DNA of 64,000 bases from Elsinoe ampelina (GCA_010093995.1 ML992501.1:1925320-1989319), one strand, 5' to 3'; positions 10,138 to 31,667 are shown, counted from the stretch's first letter. A program made the numbers and translations. The notes: generated by a model not told the origin, from the sequence alone.

Positions 10138-13074
10138 ATGGCAGCGCCGCAGGGCTATCAGGACGGGCAGTACGCACAGGATGGTACCCAGCCATACGAA
10201 GGGCAGCAACCTGCTGGGGCTCCCGTCCCTGCTGGCGGCAAGAAGAAGAGAGCCTACGCAGGACAAGCATATGATTTCGGCGCAAACACAGGAGCAGCAG
10301 CCGCACCGCCTGCGCCAGGCGCACCATACGGAGGAGCTCCCGTAGCGCAGGCAGCACAACCTGCATACGGCGGCTATCCACAACAAGCAGCACAACCAGG
10401 GTTTCCAGCTCAGGGATATGCTGATCCCAATGCTCAGCAACCGGCGGCGGGACAACAGTATGGCCAGCCTCAATATGATGCATCAGCAGGATATCAAGCA
10501 CCACAGGCTGGTTATCCAGGTCCAGGTCAGCCTGCTGCGCCGCAAGGAGGAGTTGCTGGCATGACACAGCAGTTTGGACAGATGGGATTCAACAATCAGC
10601 AGCCAGCGGCGCAACCACAGCAAGCTGGGCAAGCTATGCAAAGACTGAACCCTCTTCAACCCGTGGACATTAGCGTCCAAGGTGCACCATTCCATGTTTC
10701 GGACCTTGATCTTCCTCCACCGCCTCTTATCCTCCCGCCAAACGTGAGTACAACTAGTAGCTGGGACCATGACCAGAACTGACAGATTTCAGTCGAGTGT
10801 GACACCAGCTCCCACCGCCAACTGTCCTCCACGATATGTACGATCTACGCTTAATGCCGTTCCGACCACGAGTTCCCTCCTCAAAAAGTCAAAGCTACCT
10901 TTTGCCCTTATTATTCAGCCGTACGCCGCACTCCACGACTCGGAAGATGACGTTCCAGTCCAGCAAGATCAGGTCATCGCACGGTGCAGGAGGTGTAGGA
11001 CATATATCAATCCGTTTGCGACTTTCCTGGACCACAGCCACAGATGGAGGTGTAATATGTGTAATCTGACCAACGACGTTCCGCAAGCATTCGATTGGGA
11101 TAATGTGCGACAGCAGAGTGTAGACCGATGGCAAAGACCGGAGCTCAACTACTCTGTCATGGAATTCGTTGCACCGCAAGAGTACATGGTGAGAGCTCCA
11201 CAGCCTCTGGTATATCTCTTCCTGCTGGATGTCAGCTATGGTTCCGTTACGAGTGGACTGCTAGCTACTGCAGCCAGATGCATCTTCGAAAGTCTGGATA
11301 GGATTCCGAACGCTGATCACCGGACCCGTCTGGGTTTCATGGCTGTCGACTCTAGCCTGCACTATTTCTCCATCGGACGTGACGGTGCTGAGGTGAAGGA
11401 CGCGAGCATGCTGGTCGTCAGCGATTTGGACGAACCTTTCCTCCCAACTCCTGAAGACCTTCTGGTCAATCTGTCCGATTGCAAAGCCAACATCGAGAAT
11501 TTCCTCAATAAGCTACAAGGTATGTTCGCAAACACTCAGAATGGCGCCTCGGCGATGGGATCGGCATTAAGAGCTGGGCACAAATTGATTTCGCACGTCG
11601 GAGGAAAGATTGTATGCCTGACAGCCACGCTTCCCAATGCAGGCTATGGCAAGCTGGACGTACGAGAGGATAAGAAGCTGCTGGGAACTAGCAAGGAGAG
11701 TGCTTTGTTGCAGACCGCAAATTCATTCTTCAAGGCGTTCGCGGTGGAATGCTCCAAGACCCAGGTATCGATCGATATGTTCTTGTTCTCGGCACAATAC
11801 CAAGATGTGGCGTCATTGAGCAACCTACCACGCTACACCGGCGGACAGACATACTTCTACCCAGCATGGAACGCTGCCCGTACTGAGGACGCGGTCAAGT
11901 TCGCTAGCGAGTTCAGCGACTACCTCTCTGCAGAAATTGGCCTCGAAGCTGTCCTTCGTGTTCGGACAACGACCGGTCTACGACCCAGCTCCTTCTATGG
12001 CAACTTCTTCAACCGCAGCTCCGATCTTTGTGCATTCCCGGCATTCCCTCGCGACCAAGCCTATGTGGTCGAAATTGCCATCGACGAAACTGTCTCGAAA
12101 CCATTCATCTGCTTACAAGCTGGTGTCCTCCACACAACATGCAATGGCGAACGGCGGATTCGTGTACTTACACTCTCGATACCTACGACTCAGATCTTGG
12201 CCGACGTCTACGCAAGTGCGGATCAGCAAGCCATCTCGGTGTACTTCAGTCACAAAGCTGTCGAGCGCGCACTCTCGTCCGGTCTGGACGCGGCTCGCGA
12301 TGCTCTGCAAGCGAAGATCATCGAGCTCTTGCAGACATACAAGAAGGAGCTCGGTGGCGGCAACATGGGTGGGTCAGGACTCCAATTCCCGGTCAACATG
12401 CGAGCCCTCCCCATCTTGTTCCTTGGTCTGATCAAGAACGTAAGTCACCTTGTCCATTGCAAAACTCAATTTACCATACTGACTTATCACAGCTTGGATT
12501 GCGGAAATCCGCCCAAATCCCGTCAGATCTCCGCTCCGCTGCCTTGTGTCTCCTCTCGACACTTCCCCTTCCCTTGCTCATCCAGTACATCTATCCCCGT
12601 CTGTACTCACTACACGACATGCCGGATAACGCCGGCATTCCAGACCCCGACACTGGCGACATCGTCCTGCCCCCGGCCCTCAACCTCACCAGCCAGAATC
12701 TGGTACCCTACGGTCTGTACCTACTCGACGACGGACAGACACAATTCCTGTGGCTCGGCCGCGACGCCGTTCCACAGCTGGTCATGGATGTCTTCGGCAC
12801 AGACGACAAAGCTCAGCTCAAGCAAGGCAAGACCACATTACCTGTCCTCGACACTGAATTCAACGAGCGAGTGCGGGCCGTGGTGGACAAGAGCCGAGAC
12901 CACAAAGGTAAGGGATGCGGTAGCATCACGTACCCAAGCTTGTACCTTGTACGGGAGGATGGTGAGCCAAGTCTTCGCTTATGGGCGCAGACACTGCTTG
13001 TCGAGGACAGGGCGGATCAAGGAGTGAGCGCGGCTCAATTCGTGGGCATGTTGCGGGAGAAGGTGATACAGTAG
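10138..13074 (+). CDS. SEC24: COPII coat cargo adaptor Sec24
   Basis: Q/P/G/Y-rich N-terminus; zinc finger [12 protein letters not shown]...WRCNMC; trunk and gelsolin regions; introns 10744-10792 and 12440-12492 join the three ORFs in frame. Confidence 0.95.
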
Positions 13075-13473
13075 ACGAATCGCATTGGTAGACGGAAAGT
13101 GCAGGGGTTGGCGCCGTGGAGCGGGGCATAGTCTATGATGCAGATGGTGGTCTGGCATGACAGGACAATTGGCAGAGAGAAGCATTTAGTAGAACAGACG
13201 AAGCCATATTCCATCACATGAAGTCCTGCATGTTTGTGGTTTCGAGAACAGCGCGCCCTGGCATATTCCGCGCATCTGCTATCAAACGATCAGACTCGGG
13301 CTTCGAAGATTCGACGTCGCACGAGTCCATCACAGTAGCACCCTTGTTCCCGTCACATCCAAGCCATCACACATACTGACGTGGTGCAAGCTGATCGAAT
13401 CGCCCTACTCCTGCCACAGAAGCTTGATGCCCGAACCACCAACACCGCCCTTTACCGCCCCCATTGATCATCT

Positions 13474-13519
13474 CACCCTCCAACCCTCCAACCCTGCAAC
13501 CCTCCAACCCATCAACCCT
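13474..13519. repeat. Degenerate CAACCCT(C) microrepeat, about 5 copies
   Basis: caccctc caaccctc caaccctg caaccctc caacccat caaccct read directly. Confidence 0.6.
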
Positions 13520-13544
13520 TGCCCTCCCGACTCAACATCTCCCA

Positions 13545-13882
13545 TGCTAACACCACAACACCACTCATCACTAATACCAACCTCGTCATCCAGCACAACC
13601 AATATGACCCCGCCTTCCCAACCCCTCAACCAACCATGGCGCCAACGCAGCGGCGTCCTCGCACAGATCGCAGAAGCGGTCGCGAACCAGCAACACCGCC
13701 ATCCGGAAGGGCAAAGGATGAACCTGTTCCCCGAGGGAGCGTATATCTACAACGGAGGGCAGGGGGCGGGTGACGGCGGTGGGGTGGTGATCTTTGATAC
13801 GGATTGGGATTTGGAAGGGGAGGTGGGTGGTGGTTTTCGCCGTGTGGAGGGGGGAGGCTGTGGTAGTGCTTGTAGACAGTGA
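13545..13882 (+). CDS. Possible small hypothetical protein
   Basis: Open frame with ATG in a strongly skewed segment; no recognisable domain, may be a compositional artefact. Confidence 0.25.
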
Positions 13883-13915
13883 GGCGGTGAGGGTTGTGCC
13901 AGAGAATTAAGATAT

Positions 13916-14155
13916 CTAGGTGTCTGCGTCACTCACATCCGAGTCTGAACCCGAGGGAAGGTCGAGGTGGACGTCCTCTGGTGTGAAGTATCTCGGGAAC
14001 GGGTAGGTCTTGTTTAAAGTATCGACCAGTGGAGCCCAGACTATGTCTTCGTCCATGCCCCATCCGCGCTCGTGGTCGGGGAGGTACTCGTCGTGATTGA
14101 TGAAATACCATGGTGATTCGGTCATCGGATCGAGATAGAAGTCGTCGTTTCCTTG
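13916..14155 (-). pseudogene. Orphan terminal exon / truncated gene remnant at left edge of island
   Basis: Protein-like frame GNDDFYLDPMTESPWYFINHDEYLPDHERGWG...* preceded by branch/acceptor-like TACTGAC...CAAG, with no convincing upstream exon before the S8 stop. Confidence 0.3.
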
Positions 14156-14288
14156 TCGAGTCAGTAAGGTCGTGTGAAATTTATGTCAACGACGGGAGTC
14201 TGGTATGTCACCCGGGCTCTCCAAAGGACTTCGAATGGTAATGTATTCAGACGCTATCATCGGTGGGCTTGCGGACTTTGGAGCAAAC

Positions 14289-16712
14289 CTACAATGCTGA
14301 ATCAATGGCTTCGATGATGAGCGAGTTTCTGACCTGCTCATCCTTAAGGAAGAAGCTTGCCGGCAGCAGATTGTAGCGACGATCATTGGGCAGATGCGAG
14401 ACCTTCTTGAACAGGTTCGTCATCGTAGTCTTCACACACAACCGATTCCGTGACCACAACTTGTTCGAGGCCAAATCTTCTCTACCCTCTCGCATTCCGG
14501 TGTACTCGAGCAATGATGCAGCGAAGCCAGCTGCGATCGCCGTGGCGTACGACGTGCCGGTGCCGACTGTGTAACCTTGCGATACGAGACCAGAACATGG
14601 GACCTCCTCTGCCAGCGTGCCGAAGATGGCCGTCCCATCTCGTTGCATCTGTGGGTTGATGGAGTCCAGGTAGACTCCTTGTGCATTGGTGCCGTGTATC
14701 GGGATCACGAACTCGTTACGAGCGGGGAACATCATGTCCCCTTGGTTGGGACCGTCGTTGCCTGCGGCGGCGAAGAAAAGAATGGACCGGTCGCGATCAA
14801 AGGTCGCTCTCTGGATCGCTCTATCTATCTCTGTGCAGCACGAGGGGGATGAGCGAGAATTGAAGCCGAATGACATGACTATGACATCGACCTTCCATTC
14901 CTCGCTCGCAAACCGAATAGCCTGCTGACATCAGCATAATCGTCGAGAATAGTCTTGCACACTTGCCTCTGCAATATTCGTGGCGGATTGCTCCAGTCCG
15001 GCCGAGTCATTCGCAACCCGTGCGATATATACATCCACAGATGGTGCAGACTTCATGACCAGGGACGCGATCCTCGTACCGTGTCCGTGATAGTCAATGT
15101 ATGACTTTGAACTGTCGAAATAGTCTTTCCAGCCCCTGATATGCTTGCGCCGCTGGTGATTTCGGAAGAACTCCGCGCTCGAGTCAAGCCCCGTATCTAA
15201 GATCGCAATTCGCGTGATACGATGGTTTGTAACACTTCTGTAGTGGGTCTGTTGGAAGACTCGACCGTACGAGTGGAGTAAGAGACTGAACCATGCTTCC
15301 CCCGTCGGCCTGTGACGAGATTAGCTTCCGAAGGAAGTGAAAGACTTCTGACTTACGAAGTTGTCCGCTGGCCTAATGGGGAAGTCGCACCTACTCTATG
15401 GTCACCGACGGGGATTGGCTCGATGCCGACAAGAGCTTCTCGACAAGGTATGGGATCAAGCTCGGGCACATCATGCGCCCATCCTGACACCTTGAGAAGC
15501 TGCCATAACGGTTGCACAATTTCATCGTAAAGAGCACTACGTTTGCAGCGAGGTTCGGCGTCACGGTGATCGGCCTTGGAGTCTTGGAGAAGAGGCGAGC
15601 AGGGATCAAAGCATCGCTTGACGATCGCCCGATACTTCGATCGTAGAATGGATGATTTGTTGACGACCGGGAAATGCGGCCATGCCATATCATTACAAAG
15701 GACTTGGCGGCATCTCGCGGCATCGCCATTGATCAGCTTATCGAATGAGATTCCCGGCGGCGAATCCGAAGGTACGAGTATTCTCTGGTGTCCCAAGTCC
15801 ACTAAGAGCTTTCCCAGAGCCAGAATATAAGGGAATCTGTGGAACACTTGTCCATCGTAGTGTTCTGGGACGATGTCATGCTCGGTGAAGTCGGCTTTGA
15901 AATATGGGCTGTGAGCATAGAGGGTGTAGTCCGATTCTCCGGATACGATACCGGTTGCGACGTGCTTGAAGAAGAGTATCGAGTCGCACGACCACCAGGT
16001 AGTCATCCAAGAGGACGCATAATATTGCCAAAACGAGGCAGCCAGGGAGTACGCAAGGACAAGTCGCATCTTGGTGCTCATATCATAATCGTTGAGAATC
16101 TGATGCAGGGGTACCCCGTCGGTCGGATGAAGTGCGTAACCTTCAATGACACCATCTACAAGTTCGGGTCGAGCATCATCGTCGAGCTGTAGTGTACTCA
16201 CCGCGGGTCCAATATCGCTGTTCAGAATATCGCACATGAGCTGTCCATGAGAATTGACTATTGTCTGGTCACGAGCGTGCTCAGCAGTGGTGTCCCGGTA
16301 ATTCGAAGGGTGAGATCGACTGCAGTTGTCAGCAGTGATAGCGTCTCTCTGTCCACACTTACTCGAGGAGACTCAGAATCATCTCCCTCCAATGAGTCAA
16401 CGCGCGAGTATTCTTGTGTCCATGGCCGGAAAAGAGTATCCTTGGACCGTGAGCGGTTTGTCCAAACAACGAGTACGCTCGGAGGCATAGTCGGACCAAA
16501 TGCCCATGTCTGTGTTGATCGCCCATGTATGCTCCGCAAAGACAGGGTTGGTTTTTCAAGCCTGTATAGATTTGATTGTGTCTTGAAACAGCAAGCAAAG
16601 CTTCCTTGCTTCGGCGCGAGCCTTGTCTCTTCGAAACATGCTTGACTGCGGAACTCCATGCATAAACCAAGATAGACAGGGGAAGGAAATACAGGACTGC
16701 CTGTACAACCAT
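14289..16712 (-). CDS. Multidomain subtilisin-like (S8) serine protease with N-terminal pseudokinase-like/DUF7580-type region (gasdermin-partner type)
   Basis: Spliced model: ATG 16712 (start uncertain); introns 16362-16320 (GTAAGT..CTGAC..TGCAG), 15356-15310 (GTAAGT..CTAAT..ACAG), 14966-14922 (GC-AG). Intact triad IAILDTG (~15195), HGHGT (~15082), GTSYAT (~14551) and oxyanion AAAGN. N-region LAYSLAASFWQYY...LGKLLVDLG...YRAIVKRCF...LYDEIVQPL. Confidence 0.88.
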
Positions 16713-17052
16713 GGCCGCGAGGAGGTGATACTGGACCTTGAACTGCCACGGATGCTGATATTTGTGATCTGGAGGGTCAGGCACCACTTCGAGGGTGGTG
16801 TCGCTTTAGCGCCGCGGCGAGGATGCATTGCACGTGCCGGCAGACGATCGCGATGTGTGCCACGTCAGTCAGCTCGCAAGGAACTGCAGCCAATCACTGC
16901 ACCTATGTCGCCGTAAAGGTGGTCAGCCATCACCAGCTCATCGCGGTCGTCCAAGCAGCAACCTGCATCTCGTCCTCCGAGAGCCAAACACGATGTTTTG
17001 TGCGCGTGAGCCCTCGGACAGCGCTCGATAATTGCGATGCGACGATAGTGTC

Positions 17053-20000
17053 ATGGAAAATAGCAAGGTTGAGCACCTGGTGAGACAGTGTATAGAAGGC
17101 CTTCAGCGACTGCGAACGCGAGTGCCGCCGCAACTGAGGCTCATGCGCGACTGCTTGGACAATCACATCGCTGAACTGCGTCTCTGGTCGTCGGATGATT
17201 CCATCAATGCGAGCCCAGGCCTGGCCTCGTACAAGTCTCAGCAGGGCGCAGGAGACAATATCCACGCGTTGAACGTTCTAGAGACAATAGAGACTCTGTT
17301 GAGCAAATGTCTGGATGACGGTATGGACGAAGAGCGGCAAGTCGAAAGATCATGATGAAGACTGACGGAAGATAGAAAATTTGAGAGGCGCACTAGGTGA
17401 GATCTTCCACTTCCGCCTCAGTCAAACCCAGACTCCCACCCTGAAATTTTGCACACGTTTCGAATAGACGCCGTTTCCACGTAGTCCGCATCCAAGAGCA
17501 TACTGATGAACATACTTTAAGATCATCTTCCGGCTGTCGATGAGTGCTTCGAGGTTTTGTTCTCCGGCAGGATAAGGCTTCCTTTTCATACGTCGTGGTC
17601 AGCTGTCCGTGGAGGCCCTGATACCTTGTCTTCCCTGCCTGCGCCCTCGAATGAAGAGTGGCATTCCTTGGACGAAGTGCAAGAGCGAATATACCAAGCC
17701 AGTGAGAGTCGACTGGCCTGGCTGGGACGACTTCACCCTTTGGTTCAACCGTGTAACAGCCAGTCTGTTCACCACGACGCCGCATGGAAGGCAATCCAGG
17801 AGCCCGGCACGGCGCAGGCCGAGTCACTGAACAATCCCGTGATCCACGAATGGGTAGCGAATGGAAACACTTATAGGCCCACTTTTACGGCGAACGACGA
17901 TATTTGGATGCCGGGAGGATGGACTGTACCTGGAGAAGGGTTGCAGCAACAAAGTCAGCCGGACCTTGTCGAAATAGACACGAATGTTCATGGACCTGGA
18001 CAAAATGGTTCTCGGTATTCCCATGAAGATCAAGCATTGCTCTCCATACTCGCATCATGCCACCCCTACGTATGCATCTTCGAGAACTGTGCAGATCCCG
18101 ACATAGCTTATAATTCCCGAGAAGCCTGGGAGGAGCATATGCAGCTATGTCATCCAGGCCCGCTGTGCTGGGACTGTCCATTGTGCGTCGGCGTTGAGCG
18201 ATTCTACTTCAGCGACACCTTCTTCGACCACATCAGCTTGCTACATCATGACGCCTTCGGTGACATCCAAGTGGCAGTCGACATGCTTGCGAAGCGTGCC
18301 GGTCCGACCCCTCTGACCTGTCCACTTTGCGCTATGCAGTCGTGCTGCACCCTTCAGGAGGACGATACTCTACTGGATCACATTGCACGACATCTGCGTC
18401 AAGTCTCCGCATCGTGTATAACTGCGAGATTGACCATGAACGCCGATGCTCGGCAGGTATCCGCGAGTGGTGCAAATGATATAGAGGGACCGCGTCTGAT
18501 CGTTGGAGCTACGATCGCCAATAAGGCTGCGAACGATCGCCTCTTAGCGAGAAGTTTCTTGACGGCCCAGACTAAAAGCGCACATTCGAGACTCATCGAA
18601 CGCCTACAAGGCCTTGCACATCCAAAGGAGGCAGCACAGCCAAAAGAGACAGCACAGCCAGATCAAAATGGTCTGAATCTTTGCAATTACGAAGCAAGCA
18701 CTGAACCAAGTATGTGGGTGGAAAGGAACTCGAGGAATGATCGCTGACAATTTATAGTTGTCCGTAAATCAAAGGAGCCTTTCAATAAGTCGGTCATAAC
18801 AAAGACGAGAGGAGTGATGTCGGATGACTCCTCTGTCGATAGACCAGGTGCTACCTCAGCCCCAGTCAACTACACGTCGAAGGAGGATCCAGCCATACAC
18901 AGCAAGCCTGTAACTCCGAATGGAACTTCCAGCTTGACAAGGGTGTTGAGGCCGGCCTTTCCAAACCAGGACACAAGGCCGCGAGAATGTACTTGTTCCC
19001 GTTCGGAAGCAGGCTCTCGTCTCGGAGCCACTCCTGAGAGCTATGTCGCCTCTATCAGAGATCAAGTACGACATCAGCGATCCAGCTCACCCCTTCTGGG
19101 CGAGATCTTCCAAATCCTGTCTGAACGGTTGAACAAAGAGAACATGACAAACGGGGTTGATGAAATTGCAACAGATGCCGAGCTGTACTTTCTCTCGGGC
19201 AACGGACAACTCGATCATCGTCCGCTTTTGAGCGTTCGGGAATGGGATGCTCTTGACGTATATCGCGACCCGGCGTGCTGTATGGATCAAACGTTGGACT
19301 CCATCCCGAAGATTGTGATTCTTCGAGGCAATCAGCCTGCTCAATGCCTCCCACGCGTGGGTGCCAAATTCAATGTGGATCCCCAAGTATTTCTTCGCCA
19401 TCTACAGCATCTCTGGGGCGGCAAAGATTTTAGACTGTTCGCCTCACTAGCTCTACCCTCTACTTCTGTCGATGTCATCAGTCTATCGGTGATGACTTTA
19501 GGGAAGCACGGATACTCCGGATTGTCACTACCGCTGCTCAGGGATAGAGGGCAAATGGAGATGAATAAGTATTTGCATGAGGTGACTACAGACCGTCGCA
19601 TGCAGGCAGGAGACTCACTTGTCCGGCGATATTGGATTCATAGTCTGGATTACTTCTCAGTAGAGCAGGAGATTACAGTCTCTCTACAGCGTATGGATCG
19701 AGGATGGACTCGTAAGTATTGTAACCACCTTTTTGGACCCACGCTGACTCGAGTGAAAGTACTCATATGGACTGACATCGCTCGTCCGCTCCATCAAGGG
19801 CCGCTTGGACCATGGTACAAGCAGCTGAAACCCAGCGGTCTCTTCACCAATACGTTTGTGCGTCAGATCCGGCTTCCTGGTATAACGCTGGACAGGGAAC
19901 CCGCCGTTACTACCTCGCCTTTTGCCGGGCCCAAGTCGGATGACCTGTCTCGGCCAAGACTGCGTCATTCCCTTGTTTATGGAGTCAAAAACGATCCGAT

Positions 20001-20619
20001 TTTGATGGCTGTCGACCCTTTTTACTGTGTGCTCGAGCTTTTCGAGCTGTCAGCGTCCTCACTTGATCAACTGCTCAAGCTAATAGGAGGGCTCATGCAA
20101 GAGCGGTTGGGCTACGGCCATGTGGGCGGATCTCCAATGCAAGATCACGCCGATCTCCTCTTCCAACAGGACGTTCTGAACAGAGTGAGAGAACGAATCG
20201 TCAGCAGTCTCGCCGATATCAGACACTACAGCAACACTTGGCCCAGCACGGCTTACGAGGAACAAAAAGAACAGATCGACCGTGCCAGAGATAACATCCT
20301 ACATGACTTTGAAGATCTCAGGCAGCGTACAGATCGCCTTCTCCTTCGTTGTCATGAAGGCATGGCCATGTGTACAAGTCGTGCTGCTATTGACGAAGCC
20401 GGAAAGTCAATGGATCAAGCCAAGAAAGTTGCCCAGCTGACTTGGCTCGCCTTTCTATTCATGCCTTTGTCCTTCGCGGCATCGATTTTCGGCATGAACA
20501 ACTCCTTCCTCATGGAGTATGATACTGTGTCTATGGTGTGTTGGATCACACTTGCGATAGGAATGGGAACGACGTCGTATGCAGTGTTGTTCGCAGCTGG
20601 ACAGCGCTCCAAGTCTTGA
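17053..20619 (+). CDS. Fusion: helical HeLo-like N-terminus + C2H2 zinc-finger cluster + CorA-like (GMN) transmembrane channel domain
   Basis: ATG 17053 (MENSKVEHLVRQC...LRLWS); introns 17321-17375, 17397-17521, 18710-18757, 19712-19759 give a continuous frame. Zn-finger motifs PYVCIFENC...WEEHMQLCH, WDCPLC...FFDHISLLH, CPLC...LLDHIARHL. C-terminal stalk/TM AKKVAQLTWLAFLFMPLSFAASIFGMN plus a second hydrophobic helix. First two exons are less certain. Confidence 0.75.
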
Positions 20620-22327
20620 TGGCTGCTGACTGGCCCAACACTCTAATCTTGTCATGCTGAGATTCTTAGACTCACCATTGTGGCCGACCAGATATTACGA
20701 CACTTTTGACACTTCTTGGTACGGTGACTTTCTGCTCGCAACTGCTGCAGCTCTGGGACCGAATACTCGCCCCCTTGCAATGGCAACAAATACACCCGCC
20801 GCTTGTTTGGAAGCTCAGAGAGCGACCTGGCCGACGAGGGGGGCTGGATTCAACGCTAAACCGGGATGGGAATAGTTGTACACGACTGGAACAAATGGCA
20901 AGTACAGACAGACGAAGAGGGGCCATATGAGCAACTATTATCAGCATCGACACCAAGTCCGGACGGGTTTTACATGTAGTGCGGAAGGAGAGATTGTGAT
21001 GTCTGTCTATCAGAGGAGGACGCATGTCCCATCGAAGCCTGACTCGTTCCATGCTTTACCATGCATAGGGAGAAGGAACACCAGTATCTTTCCCACTAGC
21101 GTCATGCTGGCGCCGTATTGGCCGGTGGCTAGGCATTGCCTTGTCGCCGTGTCTTCTTAGGATGCAAAGGCAAGATAGCTTATTGGTTTGATAACAAGGC
21201 AAAGCGCCACTTAGCCGGACTGATCCGCACCAACGATTCACCTCAGGCATCACAAGATTCATGCGCTTGTGTAACGTGTGTCGATTGACTCCGCATTGAC
21301 AGGAGCCCCTCGCTGTGTAACGTACATCCTGCGAGGTTCAATAGCGATTGTGATTAACCCACGTGGCAGTCCTACGTTGGGCGCCACAATCGTGGGCAGT
21401 TCTTGTGTAATCTGCTAGACCTACTGCGTTTGTTACATGCACCAACTCATGTATGTAGTCGCATGCGTAGAAAACAGCCATCTGTTGTTGCGTTTGGTCA
21501 TGCCGGTCGTCGTCTGCGCACATTTTGGTGCGTGCCAGCGAGACGGTGTCGAGCACTTGTGCCGGCCGTGGCCTTCATAGACTTGCACGCTGGCCAGATG
21601 TCGAATCTTGCGGTCTAGGTTGGATGTGTCCGGCATTGACTTTGGTGGCTCACATAGTGCTGTTATACGGCAAGCAATGAAATTCGCCCTCTCGCACTTG
21701 TAGCTATGGCAATGCATATAGCCACCGGCGTCTATCTCACGCATTCAGCGAAAGGTACCCTACGACCGACCGCGGTTTCTGCGATGATAGACAAGCAAAC
21801 AGTGCTTCTCGAGCTTCCCTTCATCATCCATATCCTTCGGACCCATCTATACGAGATCGACCTTGCAGGCATGAATATCACGACTCTCTGTTGATCACGT
21901 CTGCCTTTGAGTTGTGGACGCTTTGTCGCTCGCAAGATGTCAATTCTCATGGTCATTGGCATCATTTCAGAGATACTGGCGACACCGATGTTTGACCTGG
22001 AGAGATCGATCTTTAAAGGAAAGAATTCTCGAAGAGGTCGACGGTCGGCAAATCACGAGATCCTGTCCGTGGAGGCCGAGGTCTTCGCGTCGCATCGGGA
22101 GCTGATTCTTTTCTTCGTCAATACGTACCTCTCCGCGCCGCATTGCATGCGATAGCTCAGCTCCAATGACAGGCTACGGCTAGCCAGCGCATCGCCGCTG
22201 ATGATGTGCATTAAGGCGCGTACTGATACATTGATCGCCAGCGACTTGGGCCGCCCATACGCCCAAAATGTGGGCGCTTGGAGGGGCACAGAGGGTAGAA
22301 GAGCTCAGGCTTGCCCTGAACACAATC

Positions 22328-25300
22328 ATGATCCTCCCTACCGACACGCGCCAACTACAGTTGGTCAAGGATGAGGATTTCCCACGATCAATGTGAGCGG
22401 AACAAACGCCAACATTGCAACTTCCGCACAACTGACTGAGCGTAGCTTTATCAGCGTGGCGGGGATTGGCACTCTGCCCGCGAGTGAATGGTCGGCGACT
22501 TCCAATCTTGGTGTTTCAACAGCATTTCCAGGCGACTTACTACAAACACCTGTCTGCTACGGTTTCCGCCATGGACTCACCCTTGAAGACGACCGCAGCG
22601 TGTGGAGCCTCTTGGACAACAAGGGGGACGATTTGCTTGAGGAGGTGGCTGCTTTGCTCAAGGACCGGCCAGAAGTATGTCAACTCGTTCCCGCGTAATA
22701 AGCAAAGACTGATTCTCAAGCTACAATACTGTCCAATCGTATTCTGTGCCCACAGTCTGGGCGGACTAATCGTCAAAAAGGTCAGACTTCATTAAAGTAC
22801 TCAGGGATTTGGCTGAGATCGCCTCGCAGTGCATTGTTGAAGCTCTCAGCCGCCAGATGGACTTCCCGGAACTTACTCGATTGATGGCTTGTTTTATCCA
22901 CATGGCCGTGCCGCATTCTCTATCGCCGGATCGGCATGTCTGGAATCAGCATGCGTTGATTGTAGCTTCACAAAGAGTCGCAAAAGTCTCGCGGAAGACG
23001 ACTGCGGACGAGGCCTTGAACTTGTCGAAGCTATGTGCTAAGTATGAGCAAGTTGCGACAATTCTACCATGTGTCGTTCTGCAGGAGACTCAACCCGTTT
23101 TGGTCAAGAATGGATTATTCAAGACCAACATGACCATGGCAAGCTGAATGACCCCCAGTACAGTATCATACGCTGATGACTTAGATTGTCCAATCTGACT
23201 CACGTGGTCTCCCAAGCGCCCATCGCACGCTTGATGTTGGGGCGACGCACTTCGATATCTGCACCAGAATCCCCTTCCAGGAGCTGCGACCCGTGGTGGA
23301 CGAGACTGTTGGGTTCGCCAGAGGTCGAATCGATCGAGAGTCAAGCCCTTGTAGGTCTCGTGCTACTATGTCTCGACGATCGTGCCTTAACCTAGCTAAT
23401 CCTGGATGCCTGCAGCACTGACTCGGTCTACGTTGGCAAGATCCACTATTCGTGCAAATTCGGAGAGCGGAGATGATGGTTCCTCAGGTGAGTCTTGGGA
23501 CCGGTCCTGAGCGCGAACATTGACCATGAAAGCGTACGATACTATCTACACGAGTACAGGTCGCAGTAGTCGAAGTACACAAGCTTCTACTTCTACGAGC
23601 GGCAGTGGACTGAGCGCATCATTCCGTTCGCTCGACTTCACTCCACAACGAAGCGACATCATTCTCCCGTGCCATATGCTCGCTGAAAATGACAAAGACG
23701 CAAAGTTCGTTGGTCGTACGGATGTGCTCAATCAGATAGAGCAGTATCTCTTGGGCGACCGATCCGGAGATAGCGCACCTCACGATCTCAGGTCTTTCGG
23801 CATATGTGGGCCAGGAGGCATTGGTAAAAGTCAAGTGGCGATGGAATTTGGTCGTACTCACACCGATGTCTTCGACGCGATTTTCTGGCTCGACGCTGAG
23901 CAGCTTACGACACTGTTGGACGGTTTCAGCCGTATCGCTGTAGCACTCGGTCTTATTCGGGAGAATTCAGCCGATGCACGGGATCAAGTGCTCGTACGCG
24001 AGCTCGTTCAAGGATGGCTTGCCAATCCGGTCAGGTCACGCAGCACTGCGGACACCACTGCCCAATCGCTGGCCAGATGGCTACTAGTATTTGATAACGT
24101 GGAGAGCCAAGATACACTCATGGAATTCTGGCCTTCAGCAAGCAGCACTGGTGCCATACTGGTCACGAGTCGAGACACTCGAGCAACAAAAATGGGCATC
24201 TATCCCATAAAGCAAGGCTCGATGTTACCTCCGCTCGCGAATGAGGAAGCTGCCGACCTTCTCTTGACCTTGGCCTGGAGAAAGGATGATGCTGACGAGG
24301 TTGTACCAAGTCAAGAGCTTGCGCAACAGCTAGGTGGCATGCCTCTTGCTGTGGTACGCATGGCGGGAGTTGCTATGGCCCAGGATCTGTCATTCACCGA
24401 ACTTCGGCAGCGGGTTGAGGAAGAATCAACGCATGACGACTTGTTCGAGCTATCGGACCATCCGCTAGCAAGTCAGAACAATTACGACTATTCGCTGTCC
24501 TCGGTCTGGAAGTTTGAGAAATTGCAGCATTCGACGACGATGCTGAATGTGATCTCATTCGTCGATCCCAGCAGTATTCCGGAAGCAATGATTACCGGCA
24601 GCTTTGAGAAAATTCAGATACCAGGCTTCCCTGCCTCACGCATGAGCTATCAAAAGTCCACATCCGAGCTGCAAAGACATTCGCTCGTCAAAGTCGACAA
24701 AACGGCCAAGAGCTTGTCCATGCATCGCTTGATACAGGACAATGCGCGGGCTAAACTACTCAAGGATCCAACGACTATGACAGCCGTGTTCCGCGCTGCT
24801 GTGACTATGGTGAAGCAATTCTGGCCGTACTCCGACAATGGTGTTCGTCATTCAACTTCGCGATGGAGGCAATGCGCAGCCATAGCACCGCATATCGAGA
24901 GGTTACATGAACATTGCAGCAAAGCGGTCCCAACTCTGCGGGCTGAATGGGAGGAGAATATTGACCTTGCAGATCTGCTGGTGGAGCTCGGCTGGTTTGT
25001 CTACAGAGAGTTATGCAGAGATTGATTTACTGATCAACCCAGGTTTTTGCTGGAAACGGGTCTATCCTCTGAAGCGCTGAGCTTCTTCAAGCTGGTAGAG
25101 AGCCGACTGGAGCGGATGCTCCTGAGCACCATAGCACCGTCTGACACGGAGACTCTGAGACTTCGACACGTACTTGGCGAGGTCTACAACAGCGTTGGCG
25201 GTATCGCAGAGGAAACCAATGATGCAGAGACTGCAATCCATTACATGCTCAAATACCACGAAATGCTTGGTCACGACCCGGTACTGCCTGGTGGTACTGA

Positions 25301-26103
25301 TCAGAGGCTCGTTGTATGCTATTATGATCTGGCATTGGCTTACGCCATGCATGGAAATTACGGCGAAGCACTTGTCTGGTGTGCGAAGTCTACCGAGGCA
25401 GCCAGCTTCTTGCGGGACCCAATGACTGTCAAAAGAGCGAGGTCGCTGGCTCTTGTCAACCGGGGAATGACATACTGGCTGATGGGAGACAATGACAATG
25501 CTTTGCAAACGCTGAATCAAGCACTGCGCGAAAGGGAGGAGCTTTACGGACCGAACGACCGCGAATCCATGATGTAAGTCCTGGATGCCTGTTTCGCGCA
25601 AAGTATGAGCTGATAGCATGTTCCAGCACCGGCCGAATTCTTCACAGTCTCGGGAATGTAATGCGGTCCATCGACGAGAGCCCTCTCAGTTTCGATTATC
25701 ATCAAAGGGCGCTGGAGCACTTCCGCGAGACTGTAGGGGACCGGCACCATCGTACCGGAAACTCGTGCTATAAAGTTGCCGAACACTTGCTCGAGGCAGG
25801 CATGGCAGCAGAGGCAAAGTAGGATACTTTCGAGACACTGCACTGGTGCATGAGCTAAAACCTCCCAGGCCGTTGCTGGATCAAGCAGTCAAAATCTTCC
25901 AGGGCCGCGTTCAGCTCAGGGCTGATCTGGGACGTGTAGTCATGCTACAGAGCGAAGCGCTGGTCCAACTTGGAGAACATGTTGCAGCAGCTGGCGCCCA
26001 GAAACAAGCTACTGAGCTCTACAAGAGCTTGCGTGGGGGTCTGATCAAGGCAAGCGTGGATCGGTCAGCTTTCGACGAGTACGTACATGTTTGGAGTCGT
26101 TAG
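22328..26103 (+). CDS. Fungal NLR: SesB-like alpha/beta hydrolase + NB-ARC + TPR
   Basis: ATG 22328; introns about 22393-22445, 22675-22720, 22781-22829, 23139(or 23103)-23184, 23351-23415, 23488-23532, 24995-25042, 25574-25627, 25819-25868. Hydrolase elbow IVFCAHSLGGLIVKK and His motif ATHFDIC; Walker A GPGGIGKS, Walker B WLLVFDNVE, ILVTSR, LGGMPLA, MHRLIQ; TPR helices ending FDEYVHVWSR*. Confidence 0.9.
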
Positions 26104-26505
26104 CCGCAGATTGTGCCGCAGCACCCGCCGTTTTCGGCGCGAATCAAAATTTCTTGGAGCGCTTCCCTTTTTCCGTCATCCATCCTGTTTGTGTAACCAA
26201 CCAACCCACATTGAAAGTGCTTTTCATCTTGATCCATCTCGAAGACGCGTAACTACGAGCACTTGCGTCCCCCCTGAAAGTGACGATCATGCACTCGGGT
26301 CGAGTGAGTCGAGAGCAGCCACTCTGCGAGATGCAGGGCGAACGCCATTCTCTCATTTGGCGCCAGTCAATGTTTAGTGCATCTGCACAAGCCATGGCGC
26401 ACGTCTAGGCGAAGAGCTGTGCCGCCATGTAGCCTTACACCTGTGCAACGAGCTGGTACTGATTGCCATGCTCGCTCTATCTCTGGCCTTCATTGAGGTC
26501 ACACC

Positions 26506-28205
26506 ATGGCCAGCGTGTCTGATCGGACGGAGACCAACAGTGGTCATAACATACGATCTGGCAACGGACACACAGCATCTACAGTAGCGTCTGAGTATGC
26601 ACTCTACGTCGAGTCGCGCAAGAATGAGTCGTTCGCCACCACTCCATGTTCTGGAGAAGTCTTGCACACTTTGAACAGCTACTTGATTAAAGATCTGCAA
26701 CCAGCGGCTCATGGGATCCTTAGTTGCTCCAAGGCGGATCTATCTTTCCACACATTCGATGGCGATGCATCACTTGTCAGTAGGAAACTGACCAGCACCG
26801 ATGAGCTCGAGCAATATGAGGTTGAGTTGACGAATTCATCCAGAACCGGCGCGACCAGCGACCGACCCAGCATTGTCATCCTTCGAGGACACCAGCAGGC
26901 TCACTGTCTGAACCTGATAGGAGGTTTGTTCGAGATCGACCCTCATTTCTTCAACGCGCATTTGTCGTACCAATGGCCGCAATGGTCATCGAATCTTTTC
27001 GCACAACCTAGCCTACCTTCAGTGGTTGCGGATCAAGTGACTTTCTGCATCGCCACTCTGGGGACACATGGACAAGTGGGCAAAGACATCGCCGCCGAGC
27101 GACATTTGGCAGCTGTAGACATGTACGGATACCAACACGTTCTGACAACGGGAGAGCAAAAGTCTGGCGAATCGGTGGTTCGGATGTTCAATCTGCACAC
27201 CCTCAGGCACTTTTCCATTGAACAGCATATCACAGCAAGCTTGATCAGACATGGTGATCAGTGGAGGAGTGAGCCATGTATCGCAGTATTCCGAAACCTC
27301 ACTAATTGTCTGCAGTGATTATCTGGTCCGACATAGCTGGACTTCTCGACAGTGGTCTGCCAGGCCCACGGTCACCGATGAAAGGCACGTCACTGCTTCC
27401 GACCGTCCGCAGATGGACGCCAGCAGCTTCGGAGACGTTCGCTAGACTCGGTCGCAATCATAAATTTCCATTGCCAGGGATGCATCAGACAGCCCGCCAT
27501 TCCATAACGGACTTCGGCGCGACCCTAGATCCACTCCTCGCTTCCGAAGACCCTCTATACGCACTCTCAGATATCGTCTCCCTATCCGCAGACTCCCTGA
27601 ACCAACTCCTCAACATCTGCGCCTGCGTACTAGACACCGAGGCCGCCCGCGACCCCGACGAACACCAGGAACACCAGGAAGCCGAGATCATCTACCACCA
27701 ACGAATCCTCAAGCGCCTCAGCACCCACATCACCCAAACCCTCTCCCAACTCGACCACTTCCGCCAAACCTGGCCCCACTCCTCCAATCCCACCAGGCAC
27801 TCCCTCTCCACCACCACCCTGACCCTCATCACCACCGACTTCTCCACCCTCCAGACCCGCACCGACGCCCTCCTCCTCCGCTGCCGCGAAAGCATGGCCA
27901 TGTGCATGCACGCGGCCCAAATCGAGGAGGCGAGGAAGAACATTGAGCAGGCGAGGAAGGTGACGCAGCTCACGTTCCTCGCGTTCTTTTACATCCCGTT
28001 GTCGTTCACCACGTCGTTTTTCGGGATGAATGTCACGTCGCTGGGCCAGGCGGATGGGTTGCCGCTCTGGCCGTGGCTGGTCATGTCCGCGTGTCTGCTT
28101 CTCGTGTCGTTGGGGATTTTGGGCTTGGTGGAGAGGTTGGGACCGCTGTTAAGGGGGCAGAGGGGGGAGAAGGCGGGGCGGTGGCTGAGGGGTTGGTGGA
28201 AGTGA
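26506..28205 (+). CDS. CorA-like (GMN) transmembrane channel protein, paralog of the upstream CorA domain
   Basis: ATG 26506; intron 27269-27315 joins the 270 aa and 299 aa ORFs; IVILRGHQ...IDPHFFNAHL; ARKVTQLTFLAFFYIPLSFTTSFFGMNV followed by a second TM helix. Confidence 0.85.
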
Positions 28206-28359
28206 GGTCTTGTGTTGAAGTGGCTGCTCGGAACGGCAATGCCGTCTCTGCTTGTAACTCATGTACACGTTGACAACGACTACGAGAAACGCTTGACAGG
28301 AATGTGAAATGCAACGCTACCTGAATGCTGATAGGTCATACCCGGGTATATCATGACTT

Positions 28360-31077
28360 TCATCTCATCCTTCCCCCCTTCCTAACGCCCCCATTCCCAT
28401 GCGCCTTCGAATACTCCATCAACAGTCCCAGAACGCCCGCGTCCCCATCCGCCTTGGCCTCCATCTCCTTCCCACCCTGCCTCTGCACCTTCTTCCCCCG
28501 GCCCCTCCCCACATCCCCGACTTCCGTCTCCTCGTCATCGCTCCGGTCAAACTTCCACGACTCCGCTAGCGAGTCATCTACTTCGATCAACTTGCTCGTT
28601 GTCAGATCCCTTACGTCTTCCCGCTCTGGTGTCCTCCTCGCTTCGGATCTGGGGCTGAAGGGATTGCCTCTTCGAGGTGCAGGACCAGTTTGCCCACGGC
28701 GTTTGTCTCGGTTCACAATCGATCGGCCTTGGAGATCGAGAAGCATGCTCGCTTCTGGGCCCGGGCTGCGAATACTTTTGCCTATATCTTTCCGGCCGGC
28801 GGCGGTCTCGCGCAGAGGGCTCAAGGCGGGAAAGGTGGGTGGCATTTGTGCGCCTTGGAGGCGTCGGTGATAGCGTTCTGCTTGGCTGCGGTCGTATCGG
28901 CCGAGTCTTTGCATGAAGTAGTACTGGCTTTGCGCCATCTTGTTGTCGCCTTTGACGCCGCCACCACCTGTGCCGCCGAAATACTCCTCCCTGAGATCGC
29001 CAACCTCACCGTCTGCGTCGTCGTCCTCGGGCCGATTACGTTTGCGGAATTCGAACACAGCATGGTTGCAGAGACCGCCTAGGCCGTCGACATGGACGGT
29101 GTTCTGCCGAAAGAAATCGATGACAGCGGCTGAGGGCTTGCCGGCGTTCTTCCAGAGGATGAATGGGGCCGCGACGAGCGACAGGATTTCTTCGAGAAAG
29201 ACGAGGACCTTGACTTGATACATGGCTGCAAACTCATCTCGGACAGCGGGTGTGTGGTATTTGTTCCGCCATCGCTGAGGTGCGTAGTGAGTGTACTCAA
29301 TCACTTCGAACAGGTGCAGAACTGGTTCATGCACTTCGGCGTCATCGGGTACAGCGCCTCTGGCTGCGGCGAAGATGGCCATTGAGACGGAAAGGTAGAA
29401 GACCGCGGTCCTGTTCGAAGTGACCTCGAAGCCAAGGAAGAGTTCAGGATCGAGGAGTGTAGCTATACCGAGGACTGCAGCGACTGTGCCAGCTACGAGC
29501 GAGACAAATTGCAGGAACTGAATGGTCTTGTCGCGAGGAAACTGTGCCAAGTAGCGGTCGGCGAACGGGTACGACATCTTGCAGCGTCGGCGAAAGTCGT
29601 GCTCAAGCTCGTTGAACTCTCGCATGCGCCATTCAGCGTGAGGTGTGAACGCTCGAGCACCAAGCTGAGCAGGCGAATTGCGAAATTCTGCATAGTAGCG
29701 CGAGAAGAAGTAGATGCATTGCGCGGTAATGTTGAACGGTGCCATGATGATGGAGATGATGGCAGCGAAGCGGAAGCGGCGACGGAGCGTCTCAATCATG
29801 CGGAGGCGTAGCTTAGCGTCCAGAATGTGTGGCTGGACGTGACCATGCGAATCGAAGACAAAGTTCTCGAAGCAGAAGGAGAGACACCACTCCAGAGACT
29901 TGGAATAAAAGGATCGCTGGCCTACGAATGGTATCGTCAGCTGAAGATCAAGAATCTCCTTGTTGATTAGCGCGATGTAGTAGTTGTCCCGTCGCATTAG
30001 GCGATTGGCGATGTCATGAGCATCCATTCTTTGCTTTGATTGTGCTGTTCTGGCGACCTTGCGCACATAGCCAGGTACGTTCGAAGCCGTCTCGGGATTG
30101 GAGTCTCTCAGATTCATCAAGCCTTCGACCACTCTCTCCCATGCTATGGTCTGAATGTCGGAGTCGGGAATACCAAGGAGATAATGGTAGAAGTCATGCA
30201 GGTGCCATAATCGACGAATGTCTGTGATGTAGCGGAAGACCATCCACGACCACCAGAAGACGAAGTTCCAGAGCAAGAGGTTCTTCCAGAACGTTGTCTT
30301 CGCCATGCACTTTGGTATCAGGATCTCTGCTGTCGATTTGCTGTGCGGAACCTTGCTGTAGTCTATGCAAGTTGAAAGAAACATGTAAGCGCTAAATAGG
30401 AATGCAGTTGAGAGCACATAAATAATTCGTGCCAGTATGATCGACCAGATTCCGTGGTCTGTGTAGTATTGGTAGACCTCGAGGAGGAACCCGTCAACGT
30501 TCTCGACGTTAGCCCATCTCCAGAGAGCCTGCTCTTTCCGATCTATTCGCGAGCCCAGTGCCCCCGGTTGTTGTTGCTGCTGCTGTCTTGCATACGCAGT
30601 AGCGGGCACAGACGGCTGATCGAAGAAGAGCCTCTGCTGCTCTTGTGTCTGCTTCCACTGCTGTCGCATCTTATCCGACTGGCGTGCTTCCGAGACATCG
30701 TGGTAATGCTGCTCCGGCGATTCTCGACCAGGCTTCCGGATCTCCATGAGCAGAGATGCTGGGACGTCGTTGTGATCTTGTGGTGAGTTCGACCTTGCAG
30801 ACTTCCCACTCGGCTGGCGTTTCTCTCGTGTCGGTCTTGCCGGTTGTCTGGAGGGTCCTGCCGTTGGTCTTTGTACGTCTTTGGGTCTTTGCTCTGGTGA
30901 TGGTTGTTCGAGTAGCATGTTGTCAAGCTCCTGTTCGTCGACAAAGTCCGGGAAATGATCCTCGAGTTCACCGCCATTCTCGAGCATCCTTTGTGACTCT
31001 TCATTCCCGCGTTCTCCGCTGTCGAAAGTGCTCTCAGCTCCGGGCAAAAATCGCGAGAGGACCTTCGACGCCATCAT
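28360..31077 (-). CDS. ATG9: Autophagy-related protein 9 (lipid scramblase)
   Basis: ALWRWANVENVDGFL, MDAHDIANRLMRRDNY, REFNELEH, VFLEEILS, IDFFRQNTVHVDGLG motifs. Confidence 0.95.
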   Translation of the reverse strand: MMASKVLSRFLPGAESTFDSGERGNEESQRMLENGGELEDHFPDFVDEQELDNMLLEQPSPEQRPKDVQRPTAGPSRQPARPTREKRQPSGKSARSNSPQDHNDVPASLLMEIRKPGRESPEQHYHDVSEARQSDKMRQQWKQTQEQQRLFFDQPSVPATAYARQQQQQQPGALGSRIDRKEQALWRWANVENVDGFLLEVYQYYTDHGIWSIILARIIYVLSTAFLFSAYMFLSTCIDYSKVPHSKSTAEILIPKCMAKTTFWKNLLLWNFVFWWSWMVFRYITDIRRLWHLHDFYHYLLGIPDSDIQTIAWERVVEGLMNLRDSNPETASNVPGYVRKVARTAQSKQRMDAHDIANRLMRRDNYYIALINKEILDLQLTIPFVGQRSFYSKSLEWCLSFCFENFVFDSHGHVQPHILDAKLRLRMIETLRRRFRFAAIISIIMAPFNITAQCIYFFSRYYAEFRNSPAQLGARAFTPHAEWRMREFNELEHDFRRRCKMSYPFADRYLAQFPRDKTIQFLQFVSLVAGTVAAVLGIATLLDPELFLGFEVTSNRTAVFYLSVSMAIFAAARGAVPDDAEVHEPVLHLFEVIEYTHYAPQRWRNKYHTPAVRDEFAAMYQVKVLVFLEEILSLVAAPFILWKNAGKPSAAVIDFFRQNTVHVDGLGGLCNHAVFEFRKRNRPEDDDADGEVGDLREEYFGGTGGGGVKGDNKMAQSQYYFMQRLGRYDRSQAERYHRRLQGAQMPPTFPALSPLRETAAGRKDIGKSIRSPGPEASMLLDLQGRSIVNRDKRRGQTGPAPRRGNPFSPRSEARRTPEREDVRDLTTSKLIEVDDSLAESWKFDRSDDEETEVGDVGRGRGKKVQRQGGKEMEAKADGDAGVLGLLMEYSKAHGNGGVRKGGRMR

Positions 31078-31667
31078 GGCCAGCCAAAGGTCGTGTCTGC
31101 TGCCTGGACGAGATCTCCTTGTGGCTGTGGCCGTTGGTTGGGCTTCTCGTTACGGTTGACATGTATTGTAGTGATTCATGAGTGCTGCTTCAGGATTGCA
31201 GACACTTGAGCAGTTGGGTCGAGCATGATGAACGAGTAGTGGAAGGTCACACCTTCACATGACAGGCAATCACGCGCCAAGCATTCATGATCATCACGGT
31301 TCGCGCCGGCCTAGCTCTCCCCACATTTTTGTAGAGCCGCATCCCACTTTGACCCCTCCATCTCTTTTCATGCCGAAGCTAAAGATTTCAAGGATTCGCT
31401 CAAATCTATGTCATTTTGCCATCTTGTCGTTATGATGCTTCGTAGTGCAATCAAGTAGATTTGACATGTTCGTGACCCGCATGTTCAGCCCTGCACGTCC
31501 CCCAATATCTGGCAAATCAATCTGAACAAACTCATATCGGAGGTCGCCGACAACAGCCAGTACCACTTCCATCCCTCTCTATATCTTCGACATCCACTCT
31601 CTACCTCTCCCCTCTCCATCTATATAACACCCATCAACTACCCTCCTCCTCTCCCTTCCATCTCATC

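Follow-up and report, generated by a model that had tools for sequence, protein, structure and literature searches.

Fungal genomes carry dozens to hundreds of NOD-like receptors (NLRs), which are often encoded beside membrane-targeting effectors, and two-gene clusters of an NLR and its effector include NWD2/HET-S, PNT1/HELLP and het-eN/sesA/sesB. To our knowledge, the output is known for very few fungal NLRs, the known ones being HeLo/HELL pores, gasdermins and patatin-like lipases. In bacteria, type III CRISPR systems employ CorA-family proteins as membrane effectors. Here we analyzed a stretch of 64,000 nucleotides (hereafter the window) from the grapevine-pathogenic fungus Elsinoe ampelina (GCA_010093995.1 ML992501.1:1925320-1989319), in which four genes, g1 to g4, sit between SEC24 and ATG9. 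An earlier note on this DNA had read the four genes together as an immune or cell-death island. Comparison of sequences indicated that the conserved unit is instead the pair of an NLR gene and a CorA-like gene, here g3 and g4, because the two recur together at related loci where no subtilase gene was found. The CorA-like channel may be the membrane output of the NLR, for which we rate the chances a little short of even. Gene models were rebuilt for positions 13500-28500 of the window from intron-less contigs of four public runs (X3, X4, X5 and X7) belonging to three studies. The pair is as follows, with positions counted from the first letter of the window.

22268 to 26103, plus strand: g3, an NLR of 1126 amino acids (aa) in ten exons with nine introns, the nine joints being seen in up to four runs.
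26506 to 28205, plus strand: g4, a CorA-like protein of 550 aa with exons 26506-27268 and 27316-28205, the joint 27268/27316 being seen in X3, X4 and X7.

The linkage of the two genes was examined in metagenome contigs from the Joint Genome Institute (JGI) and other sources, in which a scan with the CorA-family profile returned 59 loci. The choice of loci was blind to the neighbouring genes, because the scan pattern lies in the GMN region. The Pfam route covered 18 loci, those of the 59 that reached 7 kb and had a strong match. Stop-to-stop open reading frames (ORFs) of at least 110 aa, 288 after dropping overlapped ones, were taken from them and compared with Pfam; 15 of the 18 carried ORFs with DUF7779 and/or NB-ARC plus TPR. 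ORF-based detection misses short exons. In the tblastn route, the loci were searched with the gene models of the window, and merging of CorA regions with at least 90% DNA identity left 50 unique loci. A CorA match at E ≤1e-5 was present in 42 of these, and 20 of the 42 also held a g3-like NLR; for strong CorA matches (E ≤1e-15) the proportion was 17 of 30. Among the strong loci the NLR share climbed with the length of the flank, from 1/8 where the longest flank was below 2 kb to 15/16 where it was at least 6 kb. A g3-like NLR lay within 10 kb in 14 of the 15 unique strong loci with a total flank of at least 8 kb, the exception being L023. Two sets of controls gave none: weak CorA loci that matched in the transmembrane region alone and had a flank of 8 kb or more (g3-like NLR in 0/4) and bacterial CorA loci, likewise weak and transmembrane-only matches (g3-like neighbour in 0/12).

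The matches to the two genes were no more than about 2.1 kb apart in 15 of the 20 loci holding both, and the NLR usually adjoined the CorA-like gene. Four arrangements occurred (tandem either way, convergent and divergent), and the other neighbours varied. The linked NLRs were homologues of g3, with 30-36% identity over approximately 430 aa, and those with the N-terminus in one ORF had the same hydrolase motifs (L006 and L033; partial in L013, L014 and L024). Over the 10 pairs whose matches were of sufficient length, with median identities of 34% for the CorA-like proteins and 37% for the NLRs, the distances of CorA-like and NB-ARC sequences were correlated (Mantel r = 0.78; 2 of 5000 permutations gave as high a value), part of the correlation being due to two close locus pairs. 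The accessions of g3 and g4 are consecutive in E. ampelina. In Bisporella sp. PMI_857, an NLR (KAH8587276) and a CorA-like protein (KAH8587279) are encoded on one 147-kb contig, three accession numbers apart, and the numbering suggests that the two genes are adjacent. Thus, the check suggested in the earlier note, whether this CorA clade is repeatedly linked with NB-ARC or S8 protease genes, came out positive for the NB-ARC NLRs by both routes and in Bisporella, but not for the protease: no S8 gene was found at the 18 loci by Pfam or at any of the 59 by tblastn with parts of g1.

One metagenome locus, L024, also contains SEC24 (14153-17199), 87% identical to that of the window over 552 aa. Its CorA-like gene (8562-10402) and NLR gene (3835-6709) are arranged divergently, and the pair lies approximately 4 kb from SEC24; the products are at most 42% and approximately 30% identical, respectively, to those of the window, and neither an S8 gene nor ATG9 lies beside them. 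Either the pair evolves far faster than SEC24, or a different pair settled at the same place.

The g3 model was identical, letter for letter, to P0171, and its product has an N-terminal alpha/beta-hydrolase followed by NB-ARC, DUF7779 and TPR. Pfam matches were obtained for NB-ARC (E 1.4e-10) and DUF7779 (E 1.4e-21), and TPR_12, TPR_1, TPR_2 and TPR_10 scored above their cut-offs; in the Protein Data Bank (PDB), the g3-family profile matched kinesin light chain and consensus TPR chains. The Walker A motif GPGGIGKS (residues 413-420, 23808-23831) and the Walker B motif LLVFDN (504-509) were invariant in 13 relatives. In the hydrolase part, AHSLGG (residues 128-133, 22748-22765) and the PHS and H..C motifs were conserved in relatives from Dothideomycetes, Leotiomycetes, Lecanoromycetes, Sordariomycetes and Eurotiomycetes. 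The hydrolase went unrecognised when g3 and its family profile were compared by sequence with PDB, and it was the fold search that found the match. An AlphaFold2 (AF2) model of residues 1-336 had a predicted local distance difference test (pLDDT) value of 74, and its top Foldseek matches in PDB were monoacylglycerol lipases (at the head, E 1e-8), thioesterases and D14/KAI2 hydrolase-receptors; the approximately 40 rows shown were all alpha/beta-hydrolase-fold entries. The predicted structure thus confirmed the N-terminal hydrolase at the fold level, and the motifs, Pfam matches and fold search agree with the first description of g3 as a hydrolase-NB-ARC-TPR NLR. In the NLR linked to the CorA-like gene of L014 (18241-20382, minus strand), IGVGG replaces HSLGG, so that the serine is lost while the remaining domain is kept. 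The nearest non-fungal relatives of the NB-ARC/DUF7779/TPR part were actinobacterial proteins named 'FxSxx-COOH system tetratricopeptide repeat protein', with 23-28% identity (P0188, P0191, P0192, P0197, P0201 and P0204).

The g4 gene starts 402 bp past the stop codon of g3, and its model was identical to P0001. Its C-terminal part matched Pfam CorA (PF01544) at 28-29 bits against a cut-off of 27 bits, and contains FFGMN (residues 489-493), with GMN at 491-493 (28023-28031). The AF2 model, made with an alignment of 40 relatives, had a pLDDT of 84 and helices at 413-491 and 506-549. The top Foldseek matches were full-length Thermotoga maritima CorA chains (E 1e-7, probability 1.00; 450-475 aligned columns, template modelling score by target 0.47-0.57, approximately 10% identity). 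According to this model, g4 has the full-length CorA fold, with a cytoplasmic alpha/beta domain, a long stalk helix and two C-terminal transmembrane helices. The earlier note's call of a second CorA-like GMN protein was therefore upheld by the Pfam match (29 bits), the GMN motif and the fold.

The family to which g4 belongs is large, with 1780 representatives at E ≤0.001. The named relatives of g4 are all labelled 'hypothetical', and the best non-self representative is 46% identical. Among 40 family members M492 was invariant and G491 and N493 were at least 90% conserved; G128, R199, Q240, D260 and Y336 were conserved positions of the N-terminal domain. Pfam CorA was matched by 39 of 40 relatives (E ≤0.001), and seven of the longest relatives carried the CorA domain alone. 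The family profile matched solved CorA/ZntB chains over the transmembrane region only, and no Mrs2-type chain was among its 17 PDB rows at E ≤1. The N-termini share the helix motif ..EYA..V....LYPG.NY..LA, and the C-terminus is basic.

On these grounds, we propose that the pair represents a hitherto unrecognised Pezizomycotina class of NLR-controlled executioner or signalling device, in which a divergent pentameric CorA-type channel co-evolves with a dedicated hydrolase-NB-ARC-TPR receptor and is gated by it, possibly via a small molecule made by the hydrolase. The probability of this reading is, in our estimate, about 0.38. The TPR domain would sense a cue, the NB-ARC domain would oligomerise, and oligomerisation would activate the N-terminal hydrolase by proximity. 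The signal would then reach the cytoplasmic domain of the CorA-like pentamer, directly or by the hydrolase product, and the GMN pore would open or be re-regulated. The ensuing cation flux would cause membrane or ionic collapse, or would act as an ionic signal, resulting in death or alarm.

The data directly support the genes and their splicing, the two folds, the conserved GMN motif and the recurrent, co-diverging linkage; the role of the channel as output, its gating and the outcome are inferred. Several observations weigh against this proposal. The NLR already has an effector-type enzyme and therefore needs no second effector, and the strict GMN motif would fit ordinary Mg2+ transport equally well. 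Fusion with an NLR domain was found in none of 40 full-length CorA-like relatives. Inspection of 13 NLRs and approximately 50 CorA-like proteins, made without a motif search, revealed no amyloid-type motif common to their termini, so the best-known relay from fungal NLR to effector is not evident here. Three of the long loci (L009, L017 and L023) lacked an NLR detected by Pfam, L017 having a partial NB-ARC at the contig end. Some of the metagenome loci are close relatives (L013/L014, 76% identical; L008/L026, 59%; L036/L037), so that the counts overstate the number of independent events. A second CorA-like gene was present at 0/51 other loci, which leaves g2 without a counterpart. Finally, g3 contained no strain differences among the few strains compared, and thus showed no sign of allelic diversification.

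An amyloid relay between the termini of g3 and g4 had been considered on account of their Gly/Asn/Gln-rich N-termini, and was rejected on inspection.

The presence of a complete effector-type alpha/beta-hydrolase in the NLR, with HSLGG, PHS and H..C, would also suit a guard or co-receptor arrangement. The NLR would watch the channel through binding of its TPR part to the cytoplasmic domain, a disturbance of the channel or of Mg2+ homeostasis (e.g. by a competitor toxin) would release the NLR, and its own hydrolase would be the effector. Co-divergence is expected of a binding pair, and the kept GMN motif suits a channel that still does its normal job. However, a guarded housekeeping protein is expected to be conserved, whereas the CorA-like family diverges as fast as the NLR (the median of 34% given above, and at most 42% beside an 87% identical SEC24). 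We therefore regard this arrangement as unlikely, though it is the strongest of the alternatives.

Slightly less probable still is a pair with no role in immunity or cell death, in which a STAND (signal transduction ATPases with numerous domains) ATPase with TPR would be coupled to an accessory metal-ion channel, either one regulating the other, e.g. as a switch in stress or metal homeostasis. The CorA-superfamily fold with its conserved GMN motif would be in keeping with this, as would the expression of all genes in ordinary cultures or samples from three studies and the position of the island within a core housekeeping region; the bacterial NB-ARC/DUF7779/TPR relatives of g3 also include regulators (AfsR and SARP-type matches). 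On the other hand, hydrolase/NB-ARC/TPR proteins are among the commonest fungal NLR types and are called immune-like in the excerpted text of PMC4986451, and rapid divergence, a patchy distribution and shifts in gene order are more characteristic of defence-type loci than of homeostasis genes.

The remaining features of the locus, which bear on the two weakest alternatives and on the surroundings of the pair, are as follows.

10748 to 13074, plus strand: SEC24, with Sec23/Sec24 trunk, beta-sandwich, helical and zinc-finger domains by Pfam.
14289 to 16237, minus strand: g1, a DUF7580-Peptidase_S8 protein of 618 aa, from spliced contigs of X3, X4, X5 and X7 and Pfam.
17053 to 20619, plus strand: g2, a zinc-finger-like/CorA-like protein with a frame of 1096 aa in five exons, from contig joints and a frame check.
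20620 to 22267, no strand: the spacer between g2 and g3, in which no gene was recognised; 13 ORFs of at least 78 aa lacked a meaningful Pfam match.
28360 to 31149, minus strand: ATG9 (Pfam ATG9, E 2.8e-180).

The g1 gene has exons 16237-15357, 15309-14967 and 14921-14289, separated by introns 15310-15356 (GT-AG) and 14922-14966 (GC-AG). Pfam matched Peptidase_S8 and the C-terminal half of DUF7580 (profile positions 143-317 of 319), and the product contains LDTGLD (15200-15185), HGHGT (15089-15077) and GTSYA (14558-14546), in accordance with the S8 protease with a full triad that had been predicted. The domain that partners the subtilase is DUF7580, and g1 has neither repeats nor a NOD domain. 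In the Atlas, the DUF7580-S8 architecture makes up separate Ascomycota clusters, with 93, 52 and 154 members, and clusters of 608 aa also exist. Because of the latter, the idea of a frameshifted g1 N-terminus was dropped; ORFs upstream of g1 (16258-16776 and 16359-16805, minus strand), considered as the missing N-terminal half of DUF7580, had no Pfam match. A homology search of the DUF7580 part against longer proteins returned solely the protein of P0170 itself. This NCBI model of 691 aa equals g1 over 618 aa and then has one more predicted intron past the stop at 14289. Its extension runs into the stretch 13100-14250 between SEC24 and g1 (expressed part approximately 13.5-14.2 kb), where the depth of run X3 was 307 versus approximately 20 on g1. 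This stretch holds 10 of the 17 listed strain differences, and its ORFs had no Pfam match.

As originally read, the four genes would form one island in which the g1 protease processes the CorA-like protein, as HET-Q2 processes the gasdermin HET-Q1. The protease has the three triad motifs, is expressed and is oriented head-to-head with g2, and genes for S8 or CHAT proteases are the usual neighbours of fungal gasdermin genes according to the excerpted text of PMC8851545. Nevertheless, the absence of S8 genes from the related loci by both searches, the separate DUF7580-S8 clusters, the lack of a repeat or NOD domain in g1 and the failure to detect a gasdermin all stand against it, and we consider such an island quite improbable. 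The protease does not belong to the conserved module: its architecture is widespread in Ascomycota, and the sequence comparisons make g1 most likely an unrelated neighbour from a separate fungal family. The absence of a gasdermin, claimed earlier, was borne out within the reach of the search, in that none of the 18 intergenic ORFs had a meaningful Pfam match, the sensitivity of Pfam to fungal gasdermins being unchecked. The sequence outside those 18 ORFs is occupied by g1-g4.

It is very improbable that two lineage-expanded families without a functional connection lie side by side by chance or through passive synteny. Both families are large and patchy (among them the 1780 representatives mentioned above), and fungal NLRs tend to cluster in some genomes according to an excerpt of PMC12258605, but 14 of 15 loci against 0/4 and 0/12 in the controls far exceeds the rate of approximately 1% per 20 kb expected for approximately 14 NB-ARC NLRs per genome and an assumed genome size, and the two genes stay linked at 26-40% identity even where their order and the other neighbours differ. 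The figure of approximately 14 per genome is based on 1141 NB-ARC NLRs in 82 Sordariales genomes, as given in that excerpt (PMC12258605).

Other genes were observed near the pairs in the metagenome contigs. ORFs with the amidase signature (PF01425) lay within 10 kb of CorA-like/NLR pairs in five loci (L013, 8787-9296; L014, 13403-14278; L016, 7343-7708; L022, 440-1030; L035, 1645-2094), and none was seen in the window. Two gene models from a lichen metagenome-assembled genome (P0176 and P0177) have an amidase fused to the N-terminus of a g3-like NLR. The sole other NLR type in the 18 long loci was an NPHP3_N NACHT-like + DUF7791 NLR in L029 (13098-15923), approximately 5 kb from the pair.

The g2 gene is an additional, divergent member of the CorA-like family, which lies upstream of the NLR and carries a zinc-finger-like module. 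Its exons are 17053-17320, 17376-17396, 17522-18709, 18758-19711 and 19760-20619; the joints 17320/17375, 18709/18758 and 19711/19760 were seen, and an X7 contig ends at 17520. The product comprises a helical N-terminal part, a C2H2-like Cys/His region at approximately 272-369 and a CorA-like part at 574-1087, in which GMN occupies residues 1055-1057 (20491-20499). Pfam CorA (PF01544) scored 23-24 bits, under the gathering cut-off of 27 bits. The N-terminal exons of g2 and g4 had no Pfam match at E ≤1; the Atlas points the N-terminal part of g2 to zf-C2H2_AcuF clusters (score 0.95), which serves as a lead only. The CorA-like part of g2 is 32% identical to g4 over 520 aa, and an intron position is common to both; an ORF break at this position recurs in most related loci. 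These sequence features indicate that g2 and g4 are old paralogues.

Intron 2 of g2 (17397-17520, 124 bases) was retained in the long contig of X3 and spliced at one contig end of X7. When retained, it brings a stop codon into frame, so the 1096 aa come solely from the spliced form. The NCBI model of g2, P0010 (695 aa), begins at an internal Met of the 1096-aa model. Of the helical-C2H2-CorA fusion proposed earlier, the open frame over five exons stands, but the evidence for intron 2 and the shorter P0010 leave it less firm: a fusion as one product is probable and unproven, because intron 2 rests on that single X7 contig end and X3 retains it.

The Cys/His region of g2 was homologous to the N-terminus of the CorA-linked NLR of L035 (E 1e-10). 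This NLR (4447-7541, minus strand) has a helical and C2H2-like N-terminus like that of g2, which replaces the hydrolase. The CorA-like gene of L035 (within 1263-2594) is a C-terminal piece of 105 aa behind an amidase fragment and may be degraded or many-introned. Shuffling of modules between the effector position of an NLR and a neighbour gene is typical of fungal NLR systems. The module shared by the L035 NLR and g2 thus strengthens the connection of the CorA-like proteins with NLR signalling.

The four contiguous genes that had been placed between SEC24 and ATG9, at 14289-28205, were confirmed by gene models, contigs and Pfam. Fifteen joints were listed, with removed stretches of 45-65 bases and mostly GT..AG ends, and they exactly excise frame-breaking stretches; GC-AG ends occurred in two contig-supported introns, that of g1 given above and 23139-23184 of g3. 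Because intron-less contigs are best explained as complementary DNA, all four genes appear to be transcribed and spliced, the runs being presumed to be RNA. Contig cover was low at 21.0-22.0 kb, within the spacer between g2 and g3. The GenBank numbering (g2, KAF2227801; g3, KAF2227803) implies one annotated protein between them, KAF2227802. By Pfam, the window outside 14-28 kb is a core housekeeping region, with genes for kinesin, SEC24, ATG9, phosphoglucomutase, a DEAD_2 helicase and Vma12, and further for polyprenyl synthetase, GDH2, an Ariadne ligase, eIF2B-epsilon and ribosomal proteins.

The pairing offers a concrete and testable output for the common hydrolase/NB-ARC/TPR architecture, and would give a role to the large unannotated family of fungal CorA-like proteins. 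If the channel is indeed the output, it would be a eukaryotic counterpart of the CRISPR CorA effectors and would add a third route to the HeLo/HELL pores and the gasdermins. Immunity-like signalling in fungi would then be connected with ion-channel effectors, as is the case for plant resistosomes and the CRISPR-CorA systems of bacteria. Removal of the subtilase from the conserved unit corrects the first reading of the locus. In the literature searched, we found no report of CorA-type proteins linked with fungal NLRs, supplementary tables, which possibly list such neighbours, being outside the search, and no paper on DUF7580. CorA was absent from the main text of the two most relevant surveys (PMC9815663 and PMC10197012), and the occurrences of 'cora' examined in the excerpts of PMC4986451 and PMC12881547 were all the word 'coral'.

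Compared with T. maritima CorA, the CorA-like protein has a full-length fold match, a conserved GMN motif and a basic C-terminus. It differs in the low identity already noted and in that the family profile matches solved chains over the transmembrane region only; unlike CorA, Alr1, Mnr2 and Mrs2, the family is fast-evolving, multi-copy and NLR-linked. The locus resembles the HET-Q2/HET-Q1 clusters, as described in the excerpted text of PMC8851545, in that a gene for a subtilisin-family protease lies near immune-type genes, but here no gasdermin was detected, and the protease is without a repeat or NOD domain and is absent from related loci. As in type III CRISPR systems, the gene for a CorA-fold membrane protein lies beside that of an immune sensor, and disruption of ions or of the membrane is the output presumed for it. 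Those systems are bacterial with a Cas10 sensor, whereas here the sensor is a STAND NLR and there is no nucleotide-signal synthase; the likeness in sequence is limited to the shared superfamily.

The three-part architecture of g3, with an alpha/beta-hydrolase fold and GxSxG, is that of the sesB-like/NB-ARC/TPR NLRs such as Podospora Pa_2_10340, as presented in the excerpts of PMC4986451, the likeness of g3 being one of architecture and fold. A linked CorA-like gene is not mentioned for these NLRs in the portions of text searched (PMC4986451, PMC9815663 and PMC10197012). The two-gene NLR/effector clusters of fungi are alike in that the gene beside the NLR encodes a protein that acts on membranes, distantly related fungi retain the fast-evolving pair, and N-terminal modules are shuffled between the NLR and its partner, as seen for g2 and the L035 NLR. 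The partner here differs in belonging to the CorA superfamily, with two transmembrane helices and GMN, instead of having a HeLo/HELL or lipase domain; in addition, inspection found no shared amyloid signalling motif, and the NLR keeps an enzymatic N-terminus. These comparisons point to a pairing of NLR and CorA-like protein that is undescribed in the literature searched and belongs with the fungal NLRs adjoining an effector gene.

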